Shown: positions 20,242-64,000 of the stretch, in pieces
Layout: each line of letters opens with the position of its first letter
Numbering within the stretch: the stretch's first letter is position 1
Source of the DNA: Zootoca vivipara
Taxonomy: Eukaryota
Length of the DNA: 64,000 bases
Direction of reading: 5' to 3'
Assembly (NCBI RefSeq): GCF_963506605.1
Contig: NC_083288.1
Coordinates: forward strand, 30,256,001-30,320,000
Notes under the pieces: generated by a model
Database searches by the model: none
Seen by the model: only the letters and a program-made list of their open reading frames with translations
What the model was told of the DNA's origin: nothing
Made by a program: the position numbers and the translations under genes

Positions 20242-21210
20242 TTATAGGTGAATGGGAGGCCTCATTTTATTATTCCTACCAAAAATAAAACCCAGCAACT
20301 TCCACAAGGCAGTTTTGACATCTTTGTTCCTCATGCTGTAGATTATTGGGTTCATCAGTGGAGGCACCACAGTATATAACACAGCAAGCACTTCATCCAG
20401 ATGGTATGAAGAATTAGAGGTTGGCATTAAGTAGGTGAAGACAGAAGTGATGAATAATATGGAGACAACTGTGATGTGTGGAATGCAAGTGGAGAAGGCT
20501 TTCTGCCTGTTTGCCATAGACGGCATTCTCAACACTGCAGTAAAGATCTGCACATAGGACATGACAATGAATGAAAAGCAACCAAGACTTAACACCGCAG
20601 TAAATAGTAGAGCCCACATTTCACTGAGGTATGAATCAGAGCAAGAGATTTTCACCAGGTGTGGGACTTCACAGAAGAACTGATGAATGACATTGGAGCA
20701 GAAGGGAAGTGAAAAGACAGTGCCAGTGTGCAAAGCAGCATTGAACAAACCAAACATCCATGCTCCACCTGCCATTTGAATGCAGCTACTCCATTTCAAC
20801 ATAGACGCATAGTGCAAAGGGTGACAGATAGCTACATATCGGTCATAAGCCATGACAGTGAGGAGGAAGAAGTCTGATGATGCAAAAAGGATGAAGAGAA
20901 ATGTTTGAGTAACACACTGTAAATATGAAATCAGTCTTATGTTCATGAGAGAATTTGCCATGGATTTGGGAATGATGACGGAGATTGAGCCAACATCAAG
21001 GATTGAGAGATTGACAAGAAAGAAATACATTGGGGTGTGCAGATGACTGTTGACAGCAACCAGGGTAATGATCAGAAGATTTCCCACCAGGGCAGTCAGG
21101 TACATTGCGAAGAAGATCACAAAGTGTAAAATCTGCAGTTCTCGACCCTCAGAAAATCCTAGAAATATGAAATTTTCAATTATTGTTATGTTGAGAATGG
21201 CATCAATCAT
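20242..21210 (-). CDS. Olfactory receptor, intact, OR14-family-like
   Basis: 322 aa; NIT site, LHTPMY, MAYDRYVAICHPLHY, QFFCEVPHL, KAFSTCIPH, PPLMNPIIYSMRN; acceptor 7 nt before the ATG. Confidence 0.96.
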   Translation of the reverse strand: MIDAILNITIIENFIFLGFSEGRELQILHFVIFFAMYLTALVGNLLIITLVAVNSHLHTPMYFFLVNLSILDVGSISVIIPKSMANSLMNIRLISYLQCVTQTFLFILFASSDFFLLTVMAYDRYVAICHPLHYASMLKWSSCIQMAGGAWMFGLFNAALHTGTVFSLPFCSNVIHQFFCEVPHLVKISCSDSYLSEMWALLFTAVLSLGCFSFIVMSYVQIFTAVLRMPSMANRQKAFSTCIPHITVVSILFITSVFTYLMPTSNSSYHLDEVLAVLYTVVPPLMNPIIYSMRNKDVKTALWKLLGFIFGRNNKMRPPIHL

Positions 21211-22439
21211 ATTTTGACTGTTGGAAGAAGAGAAAAAGTTTTGATTAATTCATTTGCACATAGAAAAAGGTGCCTTTGTTATAAATTCCGAAATGTCTCT
21301 CTGTAATTTGCTACTTCCCCAACCCCAACCCCATTTCCTGATTGTAGTTTGTTTGTTTTTGTTCATTTGCTTGTATTTTGCACCAGCAGAAAGGCACTTC
21401 TAACAAACAGCACCCTCAGATTCTAGCGATTCCTCCAAACAGTTGTAGCACGCTTGTTCCCCAAGCCCATCCAATATCATTCCTTAACTGTCCTTCATCC
21501 TTAGATGTCAGGGGTTTGTCATGGGGAGAAGAAGCCCCACTATGTAACCAGTGTTTCATTCCCAATTCTCTGGGTCAAAAATTTATTCTTTAAGGCAAAA
21601 CTCACAGTCCAGATTTGTATAATTCCAACTCTGTGTTCTGGTGCTCAGAAAATAGCCAAAATGTGTGTGTTGCATCTCGATTCCTGAGGCTAAGCAGGTT
21701 TGGTCATGAATGTTACCAGGATGGAAGAGTGCCAAGGAACCATAACCACTCTGAGATCTTTGGGGGTAAATCTGGGGCATACAGGTCAGAAATAAAATTA
21801 TAATGCCTTGGATCCTATGATAACTTCATTTTGCCAGAGGAATTTTCCCATCCCTGCCTCTCCCCAGCAGCCATTGATTTGTTAGCAGCCTTCTCCTCAA
21901 ACTTCCAGAGAGGCTTTTCAGAGGTTGCAAGTGTATACATTGGGGAGGATAGAAGGATAGATGCTTCTTCTCTGAACTTCAGATCATTTATCCATCTCAG
22001 AAGAAATAGATTGAAAATAAGAGAAGGTGCATGATTAAGCCACTATTCTAGTGGGATAGAGCTGAATTGGGGACAATGAACATACAGTATGAATGAGGGG
22101 ATAATCACCTCTAAAAAGAAAACAACAACATAATAGCAATGATATATACTTTATTTTAAAAAGGTGGGGAAAAGCAAAAAAAGGAATGGAATTAAGTGGA
22201 TAGAATTAAAGGAATATTGAGAAAGGAGATCTGAGGACAAAAGATTGAAGGACACAGATAAAATGGGTACTGTATTTTTCTATATATTTCTTTGGCAATT
22301 CTGCTTCAAATGCTTTATCAGCAAAACAGTTTCTATTTACCTTGGTTGGTCTAGGTGTCTCTCCCTTTTTCTGACTCTCCCTTTTAGTCTTTCACTCAGT
22401 AAAGTGTGAGCAAATCAGGTGTATATTTTCCATAGTTCT

Positions 22440-22910
22440 TTCACAATTGCAAGTGGCTCCTCACTTTTTCTTCTGTCAGATCACAGCAGCTCATCTTGGG
22501 TTGACAGGTGTGTCTTGGAGAAAGAACTTGTTTCATTTAACAGCAGTAAAAGAGGCAGGCTCATGTGATGTCCCCTATCTACCTGAATTATGTTGTTGTC
22601 TAAAGTTTTACTCCCTGTTTCCCTGAATAGCTCAGCATTAATGGCACAGAGTGGCTACATTGCTGATTTTTCTGACTACAGCAGCCTACTTTCAAAGTTT
22701 GCAATCTAAGGCTATGTTGCATTGCATTTTCCAGTTGTCAATATTCAGTGAGACCCAGAGAGCTCCTCTTTGAATTTCTAAACATCCCCACATGGAATAG
22801 GGAAGCAATGTTTAAGTCACCCACCCAAGGGAACAAATGTAATAGTTGAATTGTAGCAGAGGCTGATGCAATGCCAGCTCTTTAGCATTATTCTAAGGAA
22901 TGGAAGATTT
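22440..22910 (-). promoter_or_regulatory. Conserved non-coding block upstream of OR14-like genes (likely promoter/5'UTR exon)
   Basis: Collinear similarity with 39230-39710 (ctgtcagat, ttcaaagttt.ca.tctaaggct, cagtgagacccag, atggaat, gcagaggctgatgcaatg.cagctc). Confidence 0.6.
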
Positions 22911-23196
22911 TTCTTCATCATTAGGTAAATTGTTGTACACCCACAAAGAATCAAAGATACTATGGAACACCAAGAAAATTTTAATAACCAATTAGTTTCA
23001 ATACCCACACACATGCATTAAAGTAACTTGGGGTAATAGCATCAGAAATATCCTTCCCCTCAAGAGAATATAAGAGCAAAAGAAGATTTTATGTGGATGC
23101 AACCAAAGGTCTATTTAGGCCAGCTTCCAATTTTCCATACCAGACAACCAGATGTTTTTGGAAACCCATAAGCAGAACTCATTCATACAACTGGTA

Positions 23197-24001
23197 CAGT
23201 GGTACCTCGCAAGACGAAATCAATTCGTTCCACGAGTCATTTTGTATTGCAAAAAATTTGTCTTGTGAAGCACAGTTTCCCATAGGAATGCATTGAAATT
23301 TAATTAATGCATTCCTATGGGCAAAAAAAGCTCTCCTTTCAATGAAATGGCGCCATAGCAAAGCAGCTTAAGGCACAATCCAGCACTCACAAACCCCGAC
23401 TCACCCGCCGAGCCCAGGAGCAGCCACAGCAGCAGCATTGCCCCCAAGCGCCACGGCCGCTCGGGAAGTTTTAAGGCTCTGGGGAGGGAGAAGCAGGAGG
23501 AGGGCCAGGGAGAGGCTCCCTCCCTCCTTCCCCAGCAGCCGGACCCTCGCGCCCAACCAGACAGACAGCCCGTTCACGTGCAGGCAGGCAGGCTGTCTGG
23601 TTGGCCTCTCCCGTTCGCGCTCTCCCGTTCGGCGCAGCTTTCCTGTGAAACCAGCCAAGAAAGGGCTCCACTCCCTCTGCACGGCGGCTTAAGGCGAGAG
23701 TGAGGGGGGGATCTGGCTGCTGCTCGGCTGCCAGCGGCCGTTTCGGTGAGGCGCTGCCAATCGCCATGTCCCTCCGGAAGCTGGGTGATGACGGCGGCGT
23801 AAGCGCAAGGCGGGCGGGCTCCCCGGAGGAGGCTCGGTCTCCTTAATGGGCCATCCCTGGACTTTCTCCTCCTCGCTGCGCCCCTGCCCTGCTTCGTCTT
23901 GCGAGGAAACGTCATCTTGCAAGTCTGCCAAAAAATCACAAAACGTTTTCGTCTTGCGATTTTTTCGTTGCATGAGGCATCCGTCTAGCGAGGTACCATT
24001 G
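23197..24001. mobile_element. Tc1/pogo (Tigger-like) MITE with CpG-rich cargo
   Basis: TA|CAGTGGTACCTCGC ... GCGAGGTACCATTG|TA; subterminal TTCGTCTTGCGA repeats; GC-rich insert at ~23340-23890. Confidence 0.85.
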
Positions 24002-24839
24002 TACTTGAAGGTATCTGAACTTGCAAGTTGTGTATGGACATCATTACTAGTCACTATTGAGAGATCATTCCTTCTCTGAATTGCCTAATCATTTATAAAA
24101 CTGTGTTAAATTCACCATATCTCATGACAACTAAATCTGCACATTATTATGTTTAGATATAGTAGCAAGGAGGGTTACATCTGTCGGCAATGCTCTTGGT
24201 CCCCCCAGGACCTCTGAGCATCTCCTGGTAGGCACCTCTCTGGAATAGCATGTCCCTTCACTCCAGAGTGCCTCTCTGTGACACTTTCCATATTAAAAGT
24301 GCACACAAGTCTTCTAGCATCACACAGCAAGAAGAAAGAAGCATCCGTAGATCTAAACTACGTTTTATTTACATTCTATAACAGACAATCCATAATCACG
24401 TCTGTGTTCTTCAAGCTCTGGCAGAACAGCTATTGCAGACTGTAAAAATGAAAGTACAGTACAATAATACGATCAGACGGAAGAGATAAGACAGTCTTCC
24501 ATTCCCACACTCTGCTCAGACATCTCATGTGGGGAGGCGTTGCCAGGGGATCGGCAAGGTAGGGGGAGGGACCACAATGGAAGGTGAATCTTACCTGCGA
24601 AACGTCAGTTGGCTCCAGAGCTTCTCCCACCCTGCCCTCCCTCAGTTAAGCCTTCTTTTGCAGATTAACCTCTTCTCCACAGGTACGCGGGCGCTGCTAT
24701 GTCATGGTCACTGTTGAAGGGCCGGAAAGGAATTTTCCTGCATTGGCAGGTTTTGCCTTCCCCATAGCAAAATGTCACAATTTTGGCAGTTTCTGGCCTT
24801 GGGTGGAATCCTTTAATCTATCTTTTGAAATGAGGGAGG

Positions 24840-27245
24840 GAGATGGCAGCACATTGAATCTAGCGAGGGTAAACGACCACACACACACCCAGATTCCTTT
24901 AATAGAATACCCTTAAAAGAGGAGGGGCAAGTGATGGTCACAACCTCCCCTCCCATAAGCCAAGATTCTCCAATGCCTAACCGCCAGCCAAGCTAAAACG
25001 GCTTGCCGCCAATACCCTCACACCTGCAACCAACACCTAATGCCCTCAATGACATCGGCCAACTAAACATCATTTCCACGATCAGAAAGATGAACGCCAT
25101 CATCACAGAACAAGGCCTCATTGCTGAACACAATAGTGGGGCCCTTCAGCATCTGCACTTTCAGTGCCACCGCTTGATTCACAAGTTTCCTGGCCTTGTT
25201 AATTGCGGCTGGGTGGAGGCTGTTACACCACACATGCCTCTCTAGTAGAAGCGACCAAATCAAAGTCATGTTGGGATATGATGCAGCCAACCCATCAAAG
25301 TCCCTTTTTATGTTCCACGTCAAGTCCAAGCCTAAAGGCCAAGTCATTCTCCCCCAGCTGCACTATCAGAGCGTTGGGAGGGCCAAGCAAAGCAGCTCTG
25401 GCTTTTATGATTGGCAAAAACTTTCCCCATCGCATTCCATGCTTTGAGATCCAGGAAACTCTGACGTTTTGGGGCAATCCAAACCTGCACCCCAAACTGC
25501 TGTCAATTGCACACACAGAGGCCCAGGGGACAATGCTGTGACCCTAGATGCAAATATGAGTCCCAATAGCACCTGAGAGTAAAGAAGTGACAACGTGTGG
25601 TTAGAAGTGACAATGGCCAGTTACAAATTCTTGTGAATATACTCCATGTAAGCATCCTATTAAATAGTGGGTCGACAACACAACAATTCTTCAAGAAGCT
25701 CTTTATTCGGAAGCCAGAACAGAACAGAACTGCATTGCCGAGCTGGCCTGCTTTTATGGAGGTTGGCTCAAACAATGTATCAAACATAATTCAAAGTTCC
25801 CTCCTAAAGTTCCCTCCTAAAACAACTGTCAAGGACCTGAGGGAAAACTATATACACTAATATATAACACATCTGATCTCCAATGACCCATGTCTTTGAT
25901 TCTGTCCATTGGCAGACCCAGATGAGCAGCCACCACGGCGGCTCCAATCCTAAAGGAGTGTGCAGCATATTCACTAGCCGGGAGTCCACAGGCTTCAATG
26001 GCCTTACGCATCACACATGTAAACTGATGCCAGGCAAGGCGGGATCCATCCTGATGTATCAGGAATGGGCCTGGACCAGGGGGCCTTAGGTGAAGGTATC
26101 TCCTGGTATCTTTAACAGGACAAGGACCCTTCTGCTCCGATGCTGAGAATCTGATAAGGGCACCTTTCCCACTCTGGTCAGTTTTGATAGATGAATGCAG
26201 ACCACTAACTCTGTGCTGGACAGATTTATGTCTTCCAAACATAGCACCCTGGAGGCGCAACCTGGCTCCCTCTCATTGACAACCTCGTCCACCCTTAGGG
26301 CGTCAAAGAAAGCAATAGCATAAGCAGCAGAGAATAAGCAAGATTCATATTTTGACTAGCAAATTACTCTTAACCTCCTGTGTATTTGATAAAGAAAGTT
26401 GGACGTGATAGGCCTTCTACCCTCTCTGCTTGGTGGTTGAAAGCTGTGCCACCCCTCAATTGCCCTACGGACGACAAATTCTGCGTAGGGATCCATGGAA
26501 TAAATGGATTTACTAAAAAAAAGAAAAGAAAATAGCAGCTGACTGGATGTTTAAAGTCTGAGCTGCACACCCCAGGTAGCAGGCAGAAGGCTGACTCGAT
26601 GTCACACCTGGCAAACAGTGCCCCCTGACCAAAGGTCCGAATGAGCTTTATGGCATGATCAAAGGAGGCATACTTCACCGAGCAAAGCTCGGATGGAATA
26701 GCATTATTAACTGAGCTCCCTTTGGGACATGACAAATTGTGAATCTTGCAATATTCACCTGCGCCTTTTTAGGCACAATACCCAATGGGGAAATGTGTAA
26801 ACCGCGGATGGGGTGAATGTAAAGTGGCCAGTCACCCGACCAGCTGCAATTCCCTTGGCTATTTTCTTTTTAGCAACATCTGGCTTTCCCTCACAGATTT
26901 TTTGTTGGGTGGGTCCGTGGAGTTAGGAGGGAATGATACTGGGATCCTAAAGTCCTGGGAGAAGCCCATCCCCCCAAAAAAAGTTTTAGCTGCCTCCTTG
27001 TTTGGATATTGTTCTAGGAGGAGCTTCAGGAACAAGAAGGGAGAGCTCCTGTGCGGCTGTTTAAATGAGCCAAGCCATGCCCCCCAGCTGACCAGATTGA
27101 ACGGCTGTAGGCATGATGCGGCCGGGACTCCCCTATGGCGTGGGGAAAATGCCACAGCCCCACTGTACACAGGGAGAGCACCTGACCTACTCGCAACACT
27201 GCCCCCCTAAGAAGGGGAAACAGCCTTAGCCCAAAGGTGAAAAAT
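24840..27245 (-). mobile_element. Degenerate Ngaro/DIRS-group tyrosine-recombinase retrotransposon
   Basis: Broken frames give an RT fragment (KYASFDHAIKLIR.FGQGALFARCDIESAF), a tyrosine recombinase (HSFRIGAA...MGHWRS) and an SGNH hydrolase (LIVQLGENDL; DDGVHLS), the order seen in Ngaro elements. Confidence 0.85.
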
Positions 27246-36832: not shown

Positions 36833-37783
36833 TCAGTGAAAAGGAAGCATTGTGTTCTTGCCTGAAATCTTCCAGTAAAACAGCTTCCCCAGGGCAGCTT
36901 TGACATCCTTATTCCTCATGCTGTAGATTACTGGGTTCATCATTGGAGGAACCACAGAATATATCACAGCAAGCATCTGGTCCAGCTTGTATGAAGAGAT
37001 GGAGGCTGGCATGAGATAAGTAAAAAGAATGGTGCCAACTAAGACAGAGAGAACAATGAGATGGGGAATGCAAGTGGAGAAGGCTTTTTGCCTGTTTGCC
37101 ATGGACGGCATGCTCAACACTGTGCTGAAGATCTGCACATAGGTCAAGACGATGAACACAAAGCAGCCAATACCTAATGCGCAACTGAAGAGGAGTGTCC
37201 AAATTTCATTGAGGTATGAATCAGCGCATGAGATCTTCATTAGGTGTGGGATTTCACAAAAGAACTGATGGATGACGTTGGAACAGAAGGGCAGTGAAAA
37301 AATAGTGCCAGTATGCACAGCAGCATTAAGCAAACCCGCCATCCATGATCCACCTGCCAGTTGGATGCATCTTCCCCACTTCATCATAGACGCATAATGC
37401 AGTGGGTGGCAGATGGCCACATATCGGTCATAGGCCATGACAGTGAGGAGGAACACATCCGACGACAGGAAAAAAACAAAGAAAAGCATTTGTGTCACGC
37501 ATTCAGAATATGAAATCAATGTTGAGTTCATGAGCGCATTGGCCATTGATTTGGGAATAATGACAGAGGTGGAGCCAAGTTCTCCTATCGATAAATTGAC
37601 AAGGAAGAAATACATTGGGGTCTGAAGGTTGGTGTTGAGGGCTACTAGAATTATGAGAATGAGATTTCCTGTAAGGATAACCAGATACATTGCTGAGAAG
37701 ACTGCAAACTGTAAAAGTTGAAACTCTCGTTGGTTAGAAAATCCCAGAAGCAGGAAATAATTGATAATTGTTATATTAGACAT
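36833..37783 (-). CDS. Olfactory receptor, intact, OR14-family-like; closest to 27839-28780
   Basis: True ATG at 37783 (MSNITIINYFLLLGF); all OR motifs present; acceptor ccattctatag at 37848. Confidence 0.96.
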   Translation of the reverse strand: MSNITIINYFLLLGFSNQREFQLLQFAVFSAMYLVILTGNLILIILVALNTNLQTPMYFFLVNLSIGELGSTSVIIPKSMANALMNSTLISYSECVTQMLFFVFFLSSDVFLLTVMAYDRYVAICHPLHYASMMKWGRCIQLAGGSWMAGLLNAAVHTGTIFSLPFCSNVIHQFFCEIPHLMKISCADSYLNEIWTLLFSCALGIGCFVFIVLTYVQIFSTVLSMPSMANRQKAFSTCIPHLIVLSVLVGTILFTYLMPASISSYKLDQMLAVIYSVVPPMMNPVIYSMRNKDVKAALGKLFYWKISGKNTMLPFH

Positions 37784-37951
37784 TACTTCTCCCTCATGCT
37801 CAAGAGGTAGCACAGATTACTAGTCATCAGAAGCCAGGAATCAAAACCTATAGAATGGGGGGAATACCATTAATCTTCATGGATAGTAACTTATATTGTC
37901 TGAACATTCGATACTGCATTTATTTAAAGTGTTTTCTCACTACAAAACAGC

Positions 37952-56203: not shown

Positions 56204-56801
56204 GTCCAATGGTCAAGAAGGTGGTTACTCCACATGCAGAAGGAAATGAAGGGCAGATGGGGCTCACCAACCTGGGAAGGTAGCTCATCCAGGAGAAGGA
56301 AAACTGATCCTAAACCACTGCTGCCTTGCAGCTACACTCATTCATGAGAAAGGCTTCCAGAGTAAATCCTGAGGAAAAATCTGTACCTGCTACCTTGCAG
56401 GACATCTTTGGGTGAAGAAAAGGCTAAGGAGTAAACTCTCTACAAATCTGGAGTCCCTAAAATGATTGGATGGGGCCTTGCATGCCTCCTTCAGGCAATT
56501 CCTGCAGCCAAGCTGGTGCCAAATGCATTGCTCTGCTTCCCTTTGGACAAAATCAGTGAAGTCGAGGGCTGTGTCTTGTGGTCTGGGCATCCCAGGACCT
56601 CCATTATGGAGCAAAAACTTGATGTGAGCAGCAGTTACAATTTACTGGTCTCTGTAGCCACAGCAGAAGCTGCAATTCTCCAGCAGTTTGACTTCATCCC
56701 CTGCAGCATACTCCATTGTCCCATGGCCAACAATTGGTAACTACTGTTTCTTTGTCAATTATGGTGTTTTTCCTTTTATAGACTGCTCCATTTCATTTAT
56801 A

Positions 56802-56958
56802 CAGTGGTACCTCGGTTTACAACCACAATTGGTTCCGGAAGTCTGTACTTAACCTGAAACTTACTTAACCTGAAGCGAACTTTCCCATTGAAAGTAATGG
56901 AAAGTGAATTAAGCCGTTCCAGATGGGTCCGCGGTGTTTGTAAACCGAGATATGACTG
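56802..56958. mobile_element. Tc1/pogo-type MITE monomer
   Basis: TA|CAGTGGTACCTCGG ... CCGAGATATGACTG|TA; one ACTTTCCCATTGAAAGTAATGGAAAGT core. Confidence 0.9.
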
Positions 56959-57387
56959 TATATTTTTATTTTGTTCTTAGCTATTGCTGAGTCTGCATAC
57001 TTCCATCATTTCTTTATAGTGATTGTAATTAAGCGTTCCAATTTCTGTGTTTCTGGTTCTTCCTGGTTAGCATTAGCTCAATGGAGTAAGCTTCATAGAC
57101 CTACAAGCTACAGCCTATTTTCAGTGTAGGTGAAATTGTTGGCCCCAATGATGGGAGTTTGCTAGTATTAATATTGCATTAAATTTGTGATCCTCATAAT
57201 TTCATGTATAAAAGTGAGCGAGTTCTAGAGCGAGTTCAAGTTTTCCTAAATATTTCCTGTATATGCACACTTAACCCACCAATCTTTTATGAGGCAGTTT
57301 CTCAAGCTTTACTAAGTAGTAAACCTTGCCTCAGAAGGTGATCACTTAATAACCAGAACAGCCCTTGTTGCAGTTAACAAATAAATA

Positions 57388-58275
57388 CAGTGGTACCTTG
57401 GTTTAAGTACACAATTGGTTCCGGAAGTCTGTACTTAACCTGAAGCGTACTTAACCTGAAGCGAACTTTCCCATTGAAAGTAATGGAAAGTGGATTACAG
57501 TGGAACCTCGGTTTATGAACACCTCGGTTTATGAATTTTCGGTTTATGAACGCCGCGGACCCATCTGGAACGGATTAATTCACTTTCCATTACTTTTAAT
57601 GGGAAAGTTCGCTTCAGTTTATGAACGCTTCAGTTTATGAACAGACTTCCGGAACCAATTACACCCATGCTTCAGTTTATGAACGCTTCAGTTTAAGTAC
57701 TCTGCGGACCCGTCTGGAACGGATTAATCCACTTTCCATTACTTTCAATGGGAAAGTTTGCTTCAGTTTATGAACGGTTACTCTGCGGACCGTCTGGAAC
57801 GGATTAATCCACTTTCCATTACTTTCAATGGGAAAGTTCGCTTCAGTTTATGAACGCTTCAGTTTATGAACAGACTTCCGGAACCAATTGTGTTCATAAA
57901 CCGAGGTACCACTGTAATCGGTTCCAGACGGTCCGCAGAGTACTTAACCTGAAGCGTACTTAACCCGAAGTATGAGTGTAATTGGTTCCGGAAGTCCGTA
58001 CTTAACCTGAAGCATACTTAACCTGAAGCGAACTTTCCCATTGAAAGTAATGGAAAGTGGATTAATCCGTTCCAGACAGGTCCACAGAGTACTCAACCTG
58101 AAGTGTACTTAACCCAAAGTATGAGTGTAATTAATTCTGGAAGTCCGTACTTAACCTGAAGCGAACTTTCCCACTGAAAGTAATGGAAAGTGGATTAATC
58201 CGTTCCAGATGGGTCTGCGGAGTACTTAAACTGAAAATACTCAAACCGAAGTGTACTTAAGCCGAGGTATGACTG
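57388..58275. mobile_element. Trimeric Tc1/pogo-type MITE (outer element)
   Basis: TA|CAGTGGTACCTTGG ... CCGAGGTATGACTG|TA; three cores; interrupted at the TA 57496-57497. Confidence 0.9.
57498..57914. mobile_element. Same-family MITE nested in inverted orientation
   Basis: TA|CAGTGGAACCTCGG ... CCGAGGTACCACTG|TA; removing it restores ggatTAatc in the outer element. Confidence 0.92.
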
Positions 58276-59465: not shown

Positions 59466-61483
59466 TTACAGGATAATACATTTATCAGAATTTTTGGGAG
59501 GAGGACTGCTCGGGGGAGTAAATGAATAAGGCATTGGTTTTCCTAGCAAAGAGGCACGAGGACTGCCCTGCTTTTGCTCAGCTTCTTTGGAAACCGTGGG
59601 CAGATTTTGGCTAGGAGAACCATAATCCATGCTGGCGTGAAAAGCATAGGAGGGCTGCAGGGATGGGGAGCTGGTTTCTCGAGGGGAAGGTGGTGATTTT
59701 GCCGACTGTGGGCTTGCAGTGGTCACAGAGCTGACATTAGCATGCTGGTGCTGGTGGATGAGGGCCTGAGGCTTAGAAGCATCCAAATTTCTGTTCGTTC
59801 CAGGTGAAGTATATGATGAGGGCTGCCAGGATAGGGTGGTCGTGGTTTCCAGAGGGGAAGGGGATGGGTGTGCTGATCTTGTGCTTGAGGTCACACTAAC
59901 ATATCGCTGCTGGCTGATGAGGGCCCAAGACTCGGAGCACAGAGCATCAGAATTACCGTTGATCCAAGAAGAGGTGCCCGACGGTTGCAGAGGTGGCGAG
60001 GTGGTGGTGGTTTCTAGAGGGGAAGGTGGTGAGCTTGCAGGTCCTGTGCTTGAGGAGCTTACGGCATAGTTCTTGCTAACAATGTTCTGCTGATGCACCA
60101 AGGGCCAAGAGTCAGAAGGCAGAGTGCCAGAATTACTGCTGGGACTAACAGCGGCATAAGATCCAGAGGACTGCTGGGTTGCATTGGTCGAAGCAGACTG
60201 CGAAGTGAGTGGCTGTAGGCTTGAGGTTACAGGAGAGTCCACACCATCGTACTTCCCCCAATGTGTGGACGTTGGAGACTTAGAAGGTACTTTGTCTGAA
60301 GGTGCAGCCACAAGATTTTTATCTGCCACAGGGACAGAACTCCGCGGCAGACCATCTAGCCATGTATGGTGGTGGCATTCTGATTGGTGGGCAGTCCGAG
60401 ATTTGGGCGAGTGGAGGCTGGCTGTGTTTTGAGATGGTAAGGAAGTAGGAGACGTCCCTGCAGGAGTCAAACTATGGGGGAGTCCTGCGGTTCTGGGTGG
60501 TAGCTGCTCCTGAAAAAAGGAATCTCGTCCCGAAACTGCAGAAGCATAGGACCTCTGCTGCTGAATTTGGGTGGGAGGCTGAGTCTGTCTGACTGGAGGC
60601 ACAGCTTGGGCAGGCAGCGTCTGTGGTGCAGTCTTCTGAAACTGGATCCCAGAGGGTCTTACAGAAACTGGTAGGAATGGTGCTGGGTAGAGAGGAGGCA
60701 TCTCTGGAATAAATGTGGCAGGCGGGTATACAACTGGCTGAGTCCATGCTCCAGGACTGGTAGAGACAGGCTGGAAGATGGAGGGAGGTGGTGGTGTATC
60801 ATTGTTAAAAAACCAATGGTTAACCAGATCTGCAGGCCTGGAGACCATGCTGTCAGGTTTCAAATTCTCATCCCTTCTGGTGGCTTGGGAATCCACTGGG
60901 TAAACTACAGGAGAGTTGGGAGTGTCTATTAGCTTGAGTGTCATCTCTCCCCCAGGAGCTACTGGTTTGGGAGTCCCAGGTAAAGTACTAATTTCCTTGT
61001 TGGCTGGTGGTCCAAGACATTCAGAAGGCTGGCGGAGAGAGAGATGGGGCTGAGGCGGAGGCAAAGATGTAGGCTTGCGAAGTGCAGTCTTTCGAGAAAA
61101 CTTGGGAACAACCAAAGGCTTGTTTTTAGGTGGGGAGTGGCCAGAAGTCACTGCAGAGTCTTGCACTTTGGGCAAATCAGGATGGCCTGAAAGGTCTCTT
61201 GAATTGGCTGTGGCCCTCTTGTGCTCGTGCTCTTGCAAAAGAGGTACTGTTTTGGGTATCTCCTTGAGATGGCCCTTGGGTAGAATGCAGGACTCCTTAT
61301 CATCTTCCTTTTCGAGGGGCTCTGAAGCCCGGAGGAAAGTGGAGTGGGGCTGTGGTACCCCTGGAGCCTTGGGAAGAGGGGCAGGCTTGGGACCTACTAC
61401 AGGTTCAGCTGCTGCCATCGTTTGGGGCAGCGAGTGACAAGGAGCCACTGCAGCGTTTTCCACTTCGGATGGGACAGGCTGAT
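59466..61483 (-). CDS. Large terminal coding exon: Pro/Ser/Thr-rich protein with C-terminal CaaX box (CIIL); gene not recognised
   Basis: 2 kb without a stop codon; acceptor gttgtttcag at 61484 (phase 1); first in-frame ATG at 61418 in strong context (ACGATGG); ends KNSDKCIIL-TAA-TAG. Confidence 0.8.
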
Positions 61484-62018
61484 CTGAAACAACAACAACA
61501 TTTACTGTTATGAGAGAAGGATCACAACTGCAGTTAGAAACAGGGGTGGGGTGGGGAACAGAAAGGTCAGTTGGTTCCTTCTTGAAGCCTCATATGGAAA
61601 GACCGGGGTGGGGGGGTAAGCTTGGGAATCTAGATGCTGTTAAGCAGGGGAACTGTTTGTTCATTTTTAAACTAGATCTCTCTTTCTCTTTGGTGATCAG
61701 TCCTAGCCAAGCAAGATTGTCTTCCATGAATATGGCCTTAACGGTGTGTCAGTGAGTGACTATGGAGGCCAATTCACTCACGGGATCATCACCCTTGTCG
61801 TGACGAATGGGCTTGCACGTTCCCATGATCCTTGTGAGCAATGCCGCCGGGAGTCGTACTCCCAGTAGGATCACCCAACACGGTCAAAAGGGAGGAGCTA
61901 GACCAGGGGTCAGCAAACTTTTTCAGCAGGGGGCCAGTCAACTGTCCCTCAGACCTTGTGGGGGGCCGGACTATATTTTCGAAAAAATATGAATGAATTC
62001 CTATGCCCCACAAATAAC

Positions 62019-62108
62019 CATAGCTGCCAAGTTTTCCCTTTTCTCGCGAGGAAGCCTATTCAGCATTAGGGGAAATCCCTTAAAAAAAGGGATAACTTGG
62101 CAGCTATG
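62019..62108. mobile_element. 90-bp hAT-type MITE nested in the larger hAT
   Basis: 15-bp TIR CATAGCTGCCAAGTT; 8-bp TSD CAAATAAC. Confidence 0.93.
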
Positions 62109-62229
62109 CAAATAACCAAAGAGATGCATTTTAAATAAAAGGACACATTCTACTCATGTAAAAACACCAGGCAGGCCCCACAAATAACCCAAGTGTCCCT
62201 GCGTCCAGTCCCTGTGTCCGTGGGACTGC

Positions 62230-62460
62230 ACTACTGCGCATGTGCCCCACAGACAGCCGTTGGGACTTGGAACGAGCAGGTGCGGCGGGGCGCGGCTCCA
62301 CCCCGAAGGCTCGTCCTGGGGCCACAGCAGGCAGGCTCCTCCCTGGGCCGGGCTCCGGGCTCCTCTCCGGGCCCATATAAGGCTTCCGCGTTGGGAGGGA
62401 GGTCCATCCAGCCCTCGCTCGGGCCTGCCGCCGTGCCTCGCCTCACATCTCCCCGCTCTC
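62230..62460 (+). promoter_or_regulatory. CpG-island promoter-like segment (cargo)
   Basis: NRF1-like TGCGCATGTGC (62235), GC boxes, perfect CArG/TATA-like CCATATAAGG (62373-62382). Confidence 0.6.
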
Positions 62461-62568
62461 CGGCCATGGCTGCGGCGGCGGGTGAGGAGGGCGGCGGCGG
62501 CAGGGCCCAGGCCGATGCCGCCTCTCCGTCCCGCTCCTCACCCGCTCGGCGGCGACGGAGGAGAGACC

Positions 62569-62691
62569 ATGGCGGGTCTGTGGCCGGCCTTGCTGGTGGC
62601 GGCGCTCCTCACCAGGCTCTGGTATGGCCGTGGAGACGGCAAGGGGAAGGAGGAGGCCGGGGGTCCCCTCAGCGGCAGCATGGAGACTGAG
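62569..62691 (+). other. First-exon-like fragment encoding a signal peptide (probably captured)
   Basis: Kozak ACCATGG; MAGLWPALLVAALLTRLWYGRGDG...METE; possible donor GAG|GTACAG. Confidence 0.55.
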
Positions 62692-63489
62692 GTACAGCGC
62701 CTGGTTCCCTCCCTCCCTGAGGGGAACTAAATAATAATACTAATTTTTATTCTTTCTACCCCGCCCACCTGACTGCGTTCCTAAGTTGGTACCCTAACTT
62801 TTCCTGCCTCCCCTAACTGCTCCTCTCCCAACTTCTTCCTTTCCTGCCTTGATTCGTCCCTGAGTGGGTCACTGTGGGGTTCTCCTCGCTGCCCCATGTC
62901 TTGGAGAGGGGGTGTGACACCCCCCCAAAAAAAAATACCTGGGGTTTTCTCTCTCTTCCCCGCAAGGGACTGCGTGCATCATGTGCTTTCCACGCCAGCC
63001 CCGCAGAGACTTCGGCCGGCCGGGCGGAACTGTTGAAATCTGTTTTTACAAACGTTTCACCACATATGTTCTAGCACCCGTTAATTTAACGGGCTTCATG
63101 ATACTAGTTTTAAATAAAATGACACATTCTACTCATGTAAAAACATGCTGATTCCCAGACCATCCGCGGGCCGGATTTAGAAGGCGTTTGGGCCGCATCC
63201 AGCCTTAGTTTGGGGACCCCTGAGCTAGACAAAGAATGATCCAAGAAGTCTTTGGAGGCAGAACAGGCGGAAGATAACAAGCAGTATGTTACAATGGCTG
63301 TGAAGGCGGATGAAGGCTGCAGCAGATAAGAAGAATCTGCCAGTCGTCATGATACTCATGCCATTGGAATAGAGCCTTACTGCGAAAACAGTGCATTTAT
63401 CAGCGTGCACTGATCTCCACACAAAAAACAAATTCACACACAGAAGAGTCTTCCGAAAACCCATCCCAAGCCCACCCCCCTTCCCCGGA

Positions 63490-64000
63490 TGTGAGGGACA
63501 GGGGATATCGCGAAGTCCCTCCCCTCCTGAGTTCAAGCCCAGCACTGACCACAGGGGAAAGCAGAGGGAGCTCTGATTCCAGTGGGGAAGCAGGAAGTCG
63601 GGTCCGAGGCTCAGGCAAGGTAGCGGAGCCAGGGTCCCAGGTGGGACAGGAAGGGGCAAGTAAGGGGGGGAGACCCATCCCTCCAACGCCAGAATTACGC
63701 AGAAAGAGGAGGGGCAAGAGGATGGGTCTTCCGAGGCTTTTGTGCTGGGGAAAGACGCGCCAAAAGTCATTCGGAGGTTCTGATACCGACTGAACACATC
63801 ACTCTGTGTAAATAGCAATGACTTTAGCACTGTAAATACGCAGCACCAATAAAAGAATAAAATGCAGAGCTGCGTAGCGTCGTTACTCTGAAGTAGCCTA
63901 CTCCGGCCACTGTGACAGCAACCTCCGAATCTTTTTTGGGCTACTTTGGAGTTGCCGGGATGAGCGTGCCAGAGGCGGAGAAATGGCGGCAGCTCGCTGA
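63490..64000 (+). mobile_element. 5' LTR (63490-63917) and start of the internal region of a Gypsy-like retrotransposon
   Basis: TG...CA ends, TGTAAATA and AATAAA signals, CpG retained; an ATG at 63960 opens a frame (MSVPEAEKWRQLA) that runs off the window. Confidence 0.65.

Follow-up and report, generated by a model that had tools for sequence, protein, structure and literature searches.

An 805-base transposon at 23197-24001 of the window (the whole 64,000-nucleotide stretch of Zootoca vivipara DNA analyzed here, positions 30,256,001 to 30,320,000 of contig NC_083288.1) is a pogo/Tigger-type non-autonomous derivative in which host DNA takes the place of the transposase gene. The capture of this DNA is a property of a dispersed family of elements and not an event at the window site. 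It is highly probable that the derivative was loaded by what is likely template switching, and that the copy in the window is likely an inert, methylated passenger. What is of interest is the family and its bias towards the 5' ends of genes; at the window locus itself the element is ordinary.

The element is flanked by TA (23195-23196 on the left, 24002-24003 on the right), as are most of its sister copies, and its two ends match each other in inverted orientation over 23 nt at 91%, with one change in the right terminal inverted repeat (TIR) that is private to the window copy among the aligned sisters. The interior (23340-23890) has 66% GC and 39 CpG, with an observed/expected ratio of 0.66, compared with 37% GC and 0 CpG in the left neighbor (22000-23197). 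The first-pass annotation, which had proposed a Tc1/pogo-type MITE with a CpG-rich interior in AT-rich surroundings, was thus correct in both respects, as the ends of the element are also those of a transposase-encoding parent. This parent was found through a search with the Pfam DDE_1 profile: L445 measures 2.86 kb and has TA as well as the two TIRs, and its left end recurs in L387, L395, and L398. L387 encodes a DDE_1 and an HTH_Tnp_Tc5 domain, as well as a CENP-B_N domain that scores below threshold. These domain calls are computed, and "Tigger" is the label that we take to apply to the element. The left end of the window copy (23197-23328, plus strand: TIR, subterminal repeats, and a palindrome) is 88.6% identical to L445 over 132 bp, and its right end (23893-24001, plus strand: subterminal repeats and TIR) is 80% identical over 90 bp (23912-24001).

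The approximately 560 bp between these ends map to host loci, more than the 100 bp of non-TE host DNA that is asked of a Pack-TIR. Reading from the left, the first piece is a 69-bp fragment of a BCOR CpG island (23330-23398, plus strand, 91% to G000:C4:45271280-45271347). It adjoins, on the minus strand, the coding part of LDLRAD3 exon 1 (23399-23438; ATG at 23438, 34 nt, and a GTGAGT splice donor at 23404-23399) and then LDLRAD3 5'UTR and upstream DNA (23439-23570, minus strand, 94% and 90% to L085). As a whole, the LDLRAD3 match covers 23396-23570 plus 23606-23638, with a 57-bp internal deletion of upstream DNA at 23481, and the stretch 23553-23638 is rearranged, containing a short inverted repeat, a direct duplication, and the LDLRAD3 upstream bits at 23606-23638. 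Next come two pieces from a locus on C12 (L228, G000:C12:26898384 region), the left at 23651-23678 (plus strand, 93% over 28 bp) and the right at 23840-23872 (plus strand, 97% over 33 bp), which bracket the 5' region and first 24 codons of DENND6A (23677-23837, plus strand, ATG at 23766, 90% over 161 bp to L138). The last piece, a distal LDLRAD3 upstream fragment at 23871-23892 (minus strand), would be the outer edge of the founding capture and is a short, weaker match (20/22, E of 0.001 in a small database).

The four donors lie on four contigs (C1, C2, C4, and C12) other than that of the window (C13). The best protein hits of neighboring host genes come from Zootoca vivipara, Podarcis, and Lacerta, which marks the host as a lacertid lizard. 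When the parts of the interior were searched separately, each led to a single locus that lacks element ends, and no family ends were found around the donor pieces at L085, L084, L138, and L228. The proposed capture from host CpG islands is accordingly confirmed for BCOR, LDLRAD3, and DENND6A, each with a single donor locus; the C12 donor is an unnamed non-CpG locus. L084 on C4 is a BCOR CpG island, and a coding exon of BCOR follows about 14 kb downstream of it. L138 on C2 is the first exon of DENND6A, captured opposite in direction to LDLRAD3; the element hence holds a second captured first exon, on the plus strand, which was absent from the first-pass annotation. The DENND6A frame in the element reaches a stop three codons past the end of the piece. 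The peptide ARRAGSPEE of the window copy equals that of the Podarcis muralis protein and the present donor reads AKRAGSSEE, indicating that the donor drifted after the capture. At the C12 locus, a different MITE sits about 270 bp from the donor piece and octamer-like words are repeated. In RNA run X5, 21 reads match the C12 piece and, a few bases on, depart from the genome sequence; these may stem from another allele, another copy, or a splice form.

The minus-strand sequence 23438-23405 is a 34-nt ATG exon encoding MLLLWLLLGSA plus 1 nt, in phase 1 and followed by GTGAGT, which had been read as a captured signal-peptide first exon, and it is indeed exon 1 of LDLRAD3, splice donor included. 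L085 on C1 is a CpG island in which exon, donor, intron, and upstream DNA run on uninterrupted, without element ends, and 33 kb further downstream lies an exon that matches LDLRAD3. The donor encodes MWLLWLLLGSA, codon 2 having changed from Trp to Leu in the window copy. This peptide begins the annotated LDLRAD3 of lacertids, three geckos, goose, and hawk, and close variants of it are found in LDLRAD3 of Anolis and Pogona. As a copy of a real exon 1, the exon is beyond chance, and the conservation of the signal peptide in geckos and birds sets the direction of the transfer from host to element. A 24-mer of the exon occurs 43 times in the genome, and among the 17 of these loci that were listed (two of them seen in part), L085 alone is without element ends. 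At the LDLRAD3 donor, each run contributed 3-8 RNA reads, a depth at which neither splicing nor a start can be shown; in one run, five molecules end at L085:1601, which weakly suggests a transcript start there.

The opposite direction, in which the host genes took these sequences from the element, or a native interior such as the UTR of an autonomous element, is so improbable as to be negligible. It has nothing to recommend it beyond the fact that the interior is multicopy, and it is refuted by two lines of evidence: geckos, birds, snakes, and turtles have conserved forms of the donor peptides, whose loci are longer, colinear, and free of element ends, and the window interior, compared with nine transposase loci, gives one 25-bp match at an E of 0.055 and otherwise none. 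The interior is, therefore, not the UTR of an autonomous element, a possibility that had been named as one that would overturn the reading as captured DNA.

The family to which the element belongs is large. A search of the 1.44-Gb genome gave 2452 first-look candidates, 40 of which were scored, with many at full length and 72-85% identity. The aligned copies have common ends and TA flanks, and their interiors differ by blocks. Allowing up to two mismatches, the genome contains 1588 occurrences of the 37-bp left end and 0 of the reversed control; the former count takes in empty relatives, and empty derivatives of the family measure 205-250 bp. At least 23 places, the window copy included, have all or most of the joint between BCOR and LDLRAD3 (40 of 54 candidates scored). 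Direct counts, which are lower bounds, place the LDLRAD3 deletion joint in at least 198 copies and the FKBP4 splice-donor site in at least 80. A figure of about 1000 cargo-bearing copies, extrapolated from 59/88 of the 1588, was dropped in favor of these direct counts because the sample is biased towards the subfamily of the window copy. Some short MITEs in the window (33528, 50922, and 56802-58100) share the first TIR bases and have different interiors, some being cargo-free, and those near 56800-58100 are nested in one another. A second pogo-type transposase family (L435, L436, L451, and others), with ends unlike those of the window family, has many near-identical open frames of 452 aa and about 98% DNA identity between copies; as its copies are near-identical, this family appears young and possibly still mobile.

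The cargo of the family was assessed in a sample of 88 copies that were selected for a left end resembling that of this subfamily (88 of 100 places listed, the omitted ones being 11 known from interior searches and one neighbor). LDLRAD3 DNA (at least 25 bp) is present in 59/88 copies, 53 of which also have a second located donor. The other donors are FKBP4 (27/88), DENND6A (21/88), and an ASPP-family gene (17/88), with ALOX5 (5/88) and the C12 locus (2/88) being rarer; 27/88 copies have none of the located donors. The splice-donor end of LDLRAD3 is kept in 54/88 copies and the exon body in only 3/88. The FKBP4 (C9), ALOX5 (C8), and ASPP-family (C1) donors are likewise start-codon first exons in CpG islands. 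Six of the seven located donors pass CpG-island thresholds, compared with 10 of 471 background tiles, and a start codon lies inside five of the seven. The FKBP4 donor (L374:320-740, G000:C9:72285300 region), located through Pfam PF00254, provides exon 1 and its splice donor, from which 140 bp have been deleted at a repeat of 6 bp. The ALOX5 donor (L347:2297-2720, G000:C8:81936300 region) has been rearranged in the element, the central part of exon 1 being deleted and a piece of intron standing ahead of the ATG. The ASPP-family donor (L408, G000:C1:13437692 region), identified by an ASPP2-like RA domain and presumably PPP1R13B, gave a first exon with a long 5'UTR that often accompanies FKBP4 and LDLRAD3 cargo. 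A further class of GC-rich, internally repeated cargo (L195, L206, L207, L219, and L240, 5/88) has no located donor, and the same cargo is found in a related element, L350. In DNA searches with FKBP4-type and L207-type cargo, all of the loci inspected were copies of the element. Other arrangements were also seen: a 909-bp copy (L295:157-790) has further GC-rich cargo with CCAAT-like and ATG-containing stretches, and L166, L008, L012, and L118 have another MITE inside the palindrome or a tandemly duplicated cargo.

How was such a mosaic assembled? The retention of intron-1 sequence from LDLRAD3 (about 185 bp in L087), FKBP4, and ALOX5, together with internal deletions that are not at splice sites, indicates that capture occurred at the level of DNA; these are not retrocopies. 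In L087-type copies, LDLRAD3 is the only cargo and the parent sequence runs straight into LDLRAD3 intron 1, which fits a founder form. Successive template switches in the repair of gaps or forks likely put host DNA in place of the transposase gene, the LDLRAD3 exon 1 region probably entering first, followed by the C12 piece inside it and DENND6A inside the C12 piece, and BCOR would have replaced the intron side of LDLRAD3. Each new hybrid would have kept both ends and been re-amplified by transposase supplied in trans. This suggested order is read from the nesting of the pieces, one outer piece being only 22 bp, and recombination between copies could yield the same mosaic. The joints have overlaps of 1-5 bp (CTCCC, CCG, CC, and the single bases G and A) or a 2-nt filler, and the one in FKBP4 has 6 bp; these are raw lengths, and the script produced anchor artefacts at three of nine joints. 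Such overlaps and fillers are what gap filling or template switching at forks, with subsequent transposition, predicts, according to the relevant parts of Tan et al. (2021, PMC8277862). No close family copies were found within 80, 40, 25, 50, 60, 10, and 3 kb of the donors, whose surroundings contain only three related elements at 6-48 kb; as founders may have moved, this absence is not decisive.

The bias towards gene starts may reflect open, unmethylated CpG islands being the easiest repair templates, after which the GC-rich cargo would itself provide microhomology to further islands. The bias could also arise at amplification instead of capture. In one such scenario, selection acts on the element itself in favor of promoter cargo: CpG-island DNA would keep copies open or unmethylated long enough for re-mobilisation, and serial promoter capture would amount to an anti-silencing strategy. 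The addition of cargo to lineages that were already loaded, as seen in the 53 doubly loaded copies among the 59 with LDLRAD3, would agree with this, as would bat Helitrons, for which the part of PMC4224331 that deals with copy number reports higher numbers when promoters or first exons are carried. Inserted copies, however, lose CpGs five-fold faster than other sites, and the empty derivatives are also common, making this scenario rather unlikely. The success of loaded and empty copies is not comparable here, as the sample was picked by left-end likeness. Loading through repair of open templates is the preferred account. A separate reading of low CpG loss, in a comparison of donor with family majority, as a sign of unmethylated master copies was dropped because donor drift explains the low loss.

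Across 18 copies, 388 of 2368 CpG sites have changed, compared with 324 of 10188 other sites, a 5.2-fold difference, and in the window copy the values are 19.4% and 2.8%, at the high end of the sisters. The window copy sits on a star-like tree of copies; together with the pattern of decay, this likely indicates methylated and unselected DNA, the inertness of the copy being deduced from CpG decay and reading frame. A change of 3.2% at the lacertid rate of 2.56e-9 (as quoted in PMC12001565) corresponds to roughly 12 million years. Both the ATG and the GT are intact in 14/19 sister copies, which is compatible with youth, use also being possible. Promoter motifs had also been listed for the insert. 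All four are present, namely CACGTG (at 23575, not 23576), CCAAT (23757), CCGGAAG (23774), and AAATGGCG (23345), but their value is weak in a comparison of sisters, in which two of the four prove to be private or rare changes. CACGTG is found in 2/18 aligned sisters and, as the others read CGCGCG or similar, is a product of CpG decay. CCGGAAG is found in 1/18 and lies inside the DENND6A coding sequence, where the donor reads GCGGAAG. AAATGGCG is found in 7/18, the donor reading AAATGACG, and CCAAT, 9 nt before the DENND6A ATG, is found in 16/18. An ETS-like site in the LDLRAD3 5'UTR is kept by the sisters and changed in the window copy.

The neighboring olfactory receptor (OR) gene had been suggested as a beneficiary of the insertion. 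Its intact open reading frame (20242-21210, minus strand, 7tm_4) and an acceptor AG that ends at 21218 are as had been described. A block at 22462-22909 (minus strand) is conserved with the paralogous OR at 36833-37816 (63% over 495 columns) and is likely, as judged from this conservation, the native regulatory or first-exon region of the OR. The MITE is situated about 290 bp beyond this block. One can envision that the window copy was co-opted as an alternative promoter and first exon, or as an upstream-ORF brake, for this OR, given that it lies on the same strand with ATG and GTGAGT intact, 2.2 kb from the acceptor and beside the conserved block, and that at least 30% of Pack-TIRs are transcribed as chimeras, according to the section of Tan et al. 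on expression (2021, PMC8277862). Yet splicing from 23405 to 21217 is predicted to continue as V-K-I-stop, yielding a 14-codon peptide of which the stop overlaps the OR ATG out of frame, so that the product would be at most an upstream ORF and never a signal-peptide fusion to the OR. CpG decay is as high as in the sisters, the ETS-like site has been altered, the stretch with the weakly suggested LDLRAD3 start is missing from the window copy, and the paralogous OR is without such an insertion between the same two conserved blocks. Co-option is, therefore, very unlikely, and the window copy probably does not act on the OR, contrary to the suggestion that a promoter and donor had been placed for it; a likely inert passenger is the better description. 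A search for O/E sites in 21200-25200 gave none. Three raw RNA runs of unstated tissue, each read to about 6%, and a contig set contained no joint between 23405 and the OR, but the OR is essentially uncovered in them and 93-97% of the RNA reads that match at the window run on into unlike sequence from other family copies, so that the absence does not bear on expression. Elsewhere in the window, exons of a receptor-like gene at 41933-50201 (minus strand), past seven OR genes, presumably belong to a vomeronasal type 2 receptor, judging from their translation. A 707-aa proline/serine-rich open frame is present at 59466-61589, and a CpG island in 62000-64000 may include a signal-peptide first exon at around 62600.

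The family is multicopy and has distant donors, up to four of which are stacked, as well as a strong skew towards gene starts, unlike the mostly single-copy Pack-TIRs that have been surveyed. Its nested, dated steps and known donors make it testable whether the skew stems from capture, with open chromatin as the repair template, or from amplification, with promoter cargo aiding mobility. Gene and promoter annotation in lizards can be led astray by such copies, which look like CpG islands and first exons. A wider notion, tentative and rather unlikely, is that vertebrate pogo/Tigger MITEs are serial harvesters of CpG-island gene starts, in which every promoter taken up would seed a further capture and aid the element in evading silencing; a single family would then scatter hundreds of head-to-head promoter/first-exon cassettes with splice donors, ready for use, and some of these would rewire genes at their new sites.

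No account of the family was found in the open literature, that is, outside subscription journals and repeat databases. A truncated Tc1/Mariner-like element of a lacertid, known here by its description (PMC10058329), is described without gene capture. The family shares with pogo/Tigger-derived MITEs the TA target site duplication, TIRs that start with CAG, derivation by deletion from a DDE_1/HTH_Tnp_Tc5 element, and empty forms of 205-250 bp, but differs from them in that its interior is foreign host DNA and not a remnant of the parent. Like the rice Pack-MULEs, as characterized in the pertinent part of PMC5861414, the elements are non-autonomous, have TIRs, and prefer GC-rich gene sequence, and open chromatin has been proposed there to favor acquisition. 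Pack-MULEs differ as members of the Mutator superfamily in a plant, many being transcribed, with target site duplications of 8-11 bp and long TIRs, whereas TA and short TIRs are found here. The closest parallel in cargo is with Helitrons, namely HelibatN3/NUBPL of bats (Thomas et al. 2014, PMC4224331) and Heli1Xen1 of Xenopus (PMC12001565), which, in the portions of these studies concerned with capture, show the same bias towards promoters, 5'UTRs, first exons, and first introns, sequential capture, and high copy number; the 5' enrichment in Xenopus is called unexplained there. These are rolling-circle elements with corresponding ends and no target site duplication, whereas the window family consists of cut-and-paste DDE elements with TA duplication, indicating that the bias towards gene starts is not tied to Helitron chemistry. 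In its workings the window element thus resembles Pack-MULEs and the promoter-carrying Helitrons of bats, but it belongs to neither group.

Among animals, the relevant comparison is with the Pack-TIRs of the one survey found, that of Tan et al. (2021, PMC8277862), which, in the sections of this survey that treat their origin, are rare, mostly single-copy accidents of local repair. Only four cases (1.4%) are multicopy, a frog example having three copies, and TcMariner elements are among the carriers, with one frog case containing the 5'UTR of CAPSL. The only lizard surveyed, anoCar2, had 0 Pack-TIRs, but also 0 annotated TcMariner elements, so that the lizard clade was effectively unsampled. 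Like the multicopy Pack-TIRs, the window element has host DNA between TIRs, short overlaps at the joints, distant donors, and new target site duplications; it departs from them in having four nested donors in one element, at least seven across the family, and hundreds of copies. Under the published filter, a single, unique parent has to account for 80-120% of the insert, and an element with four parents and hundreds of sisters would be missed, although the concept fits, which makes the family a variant of the class. By concept, the window element is a multicopy, multi-donor Pack-TIR.
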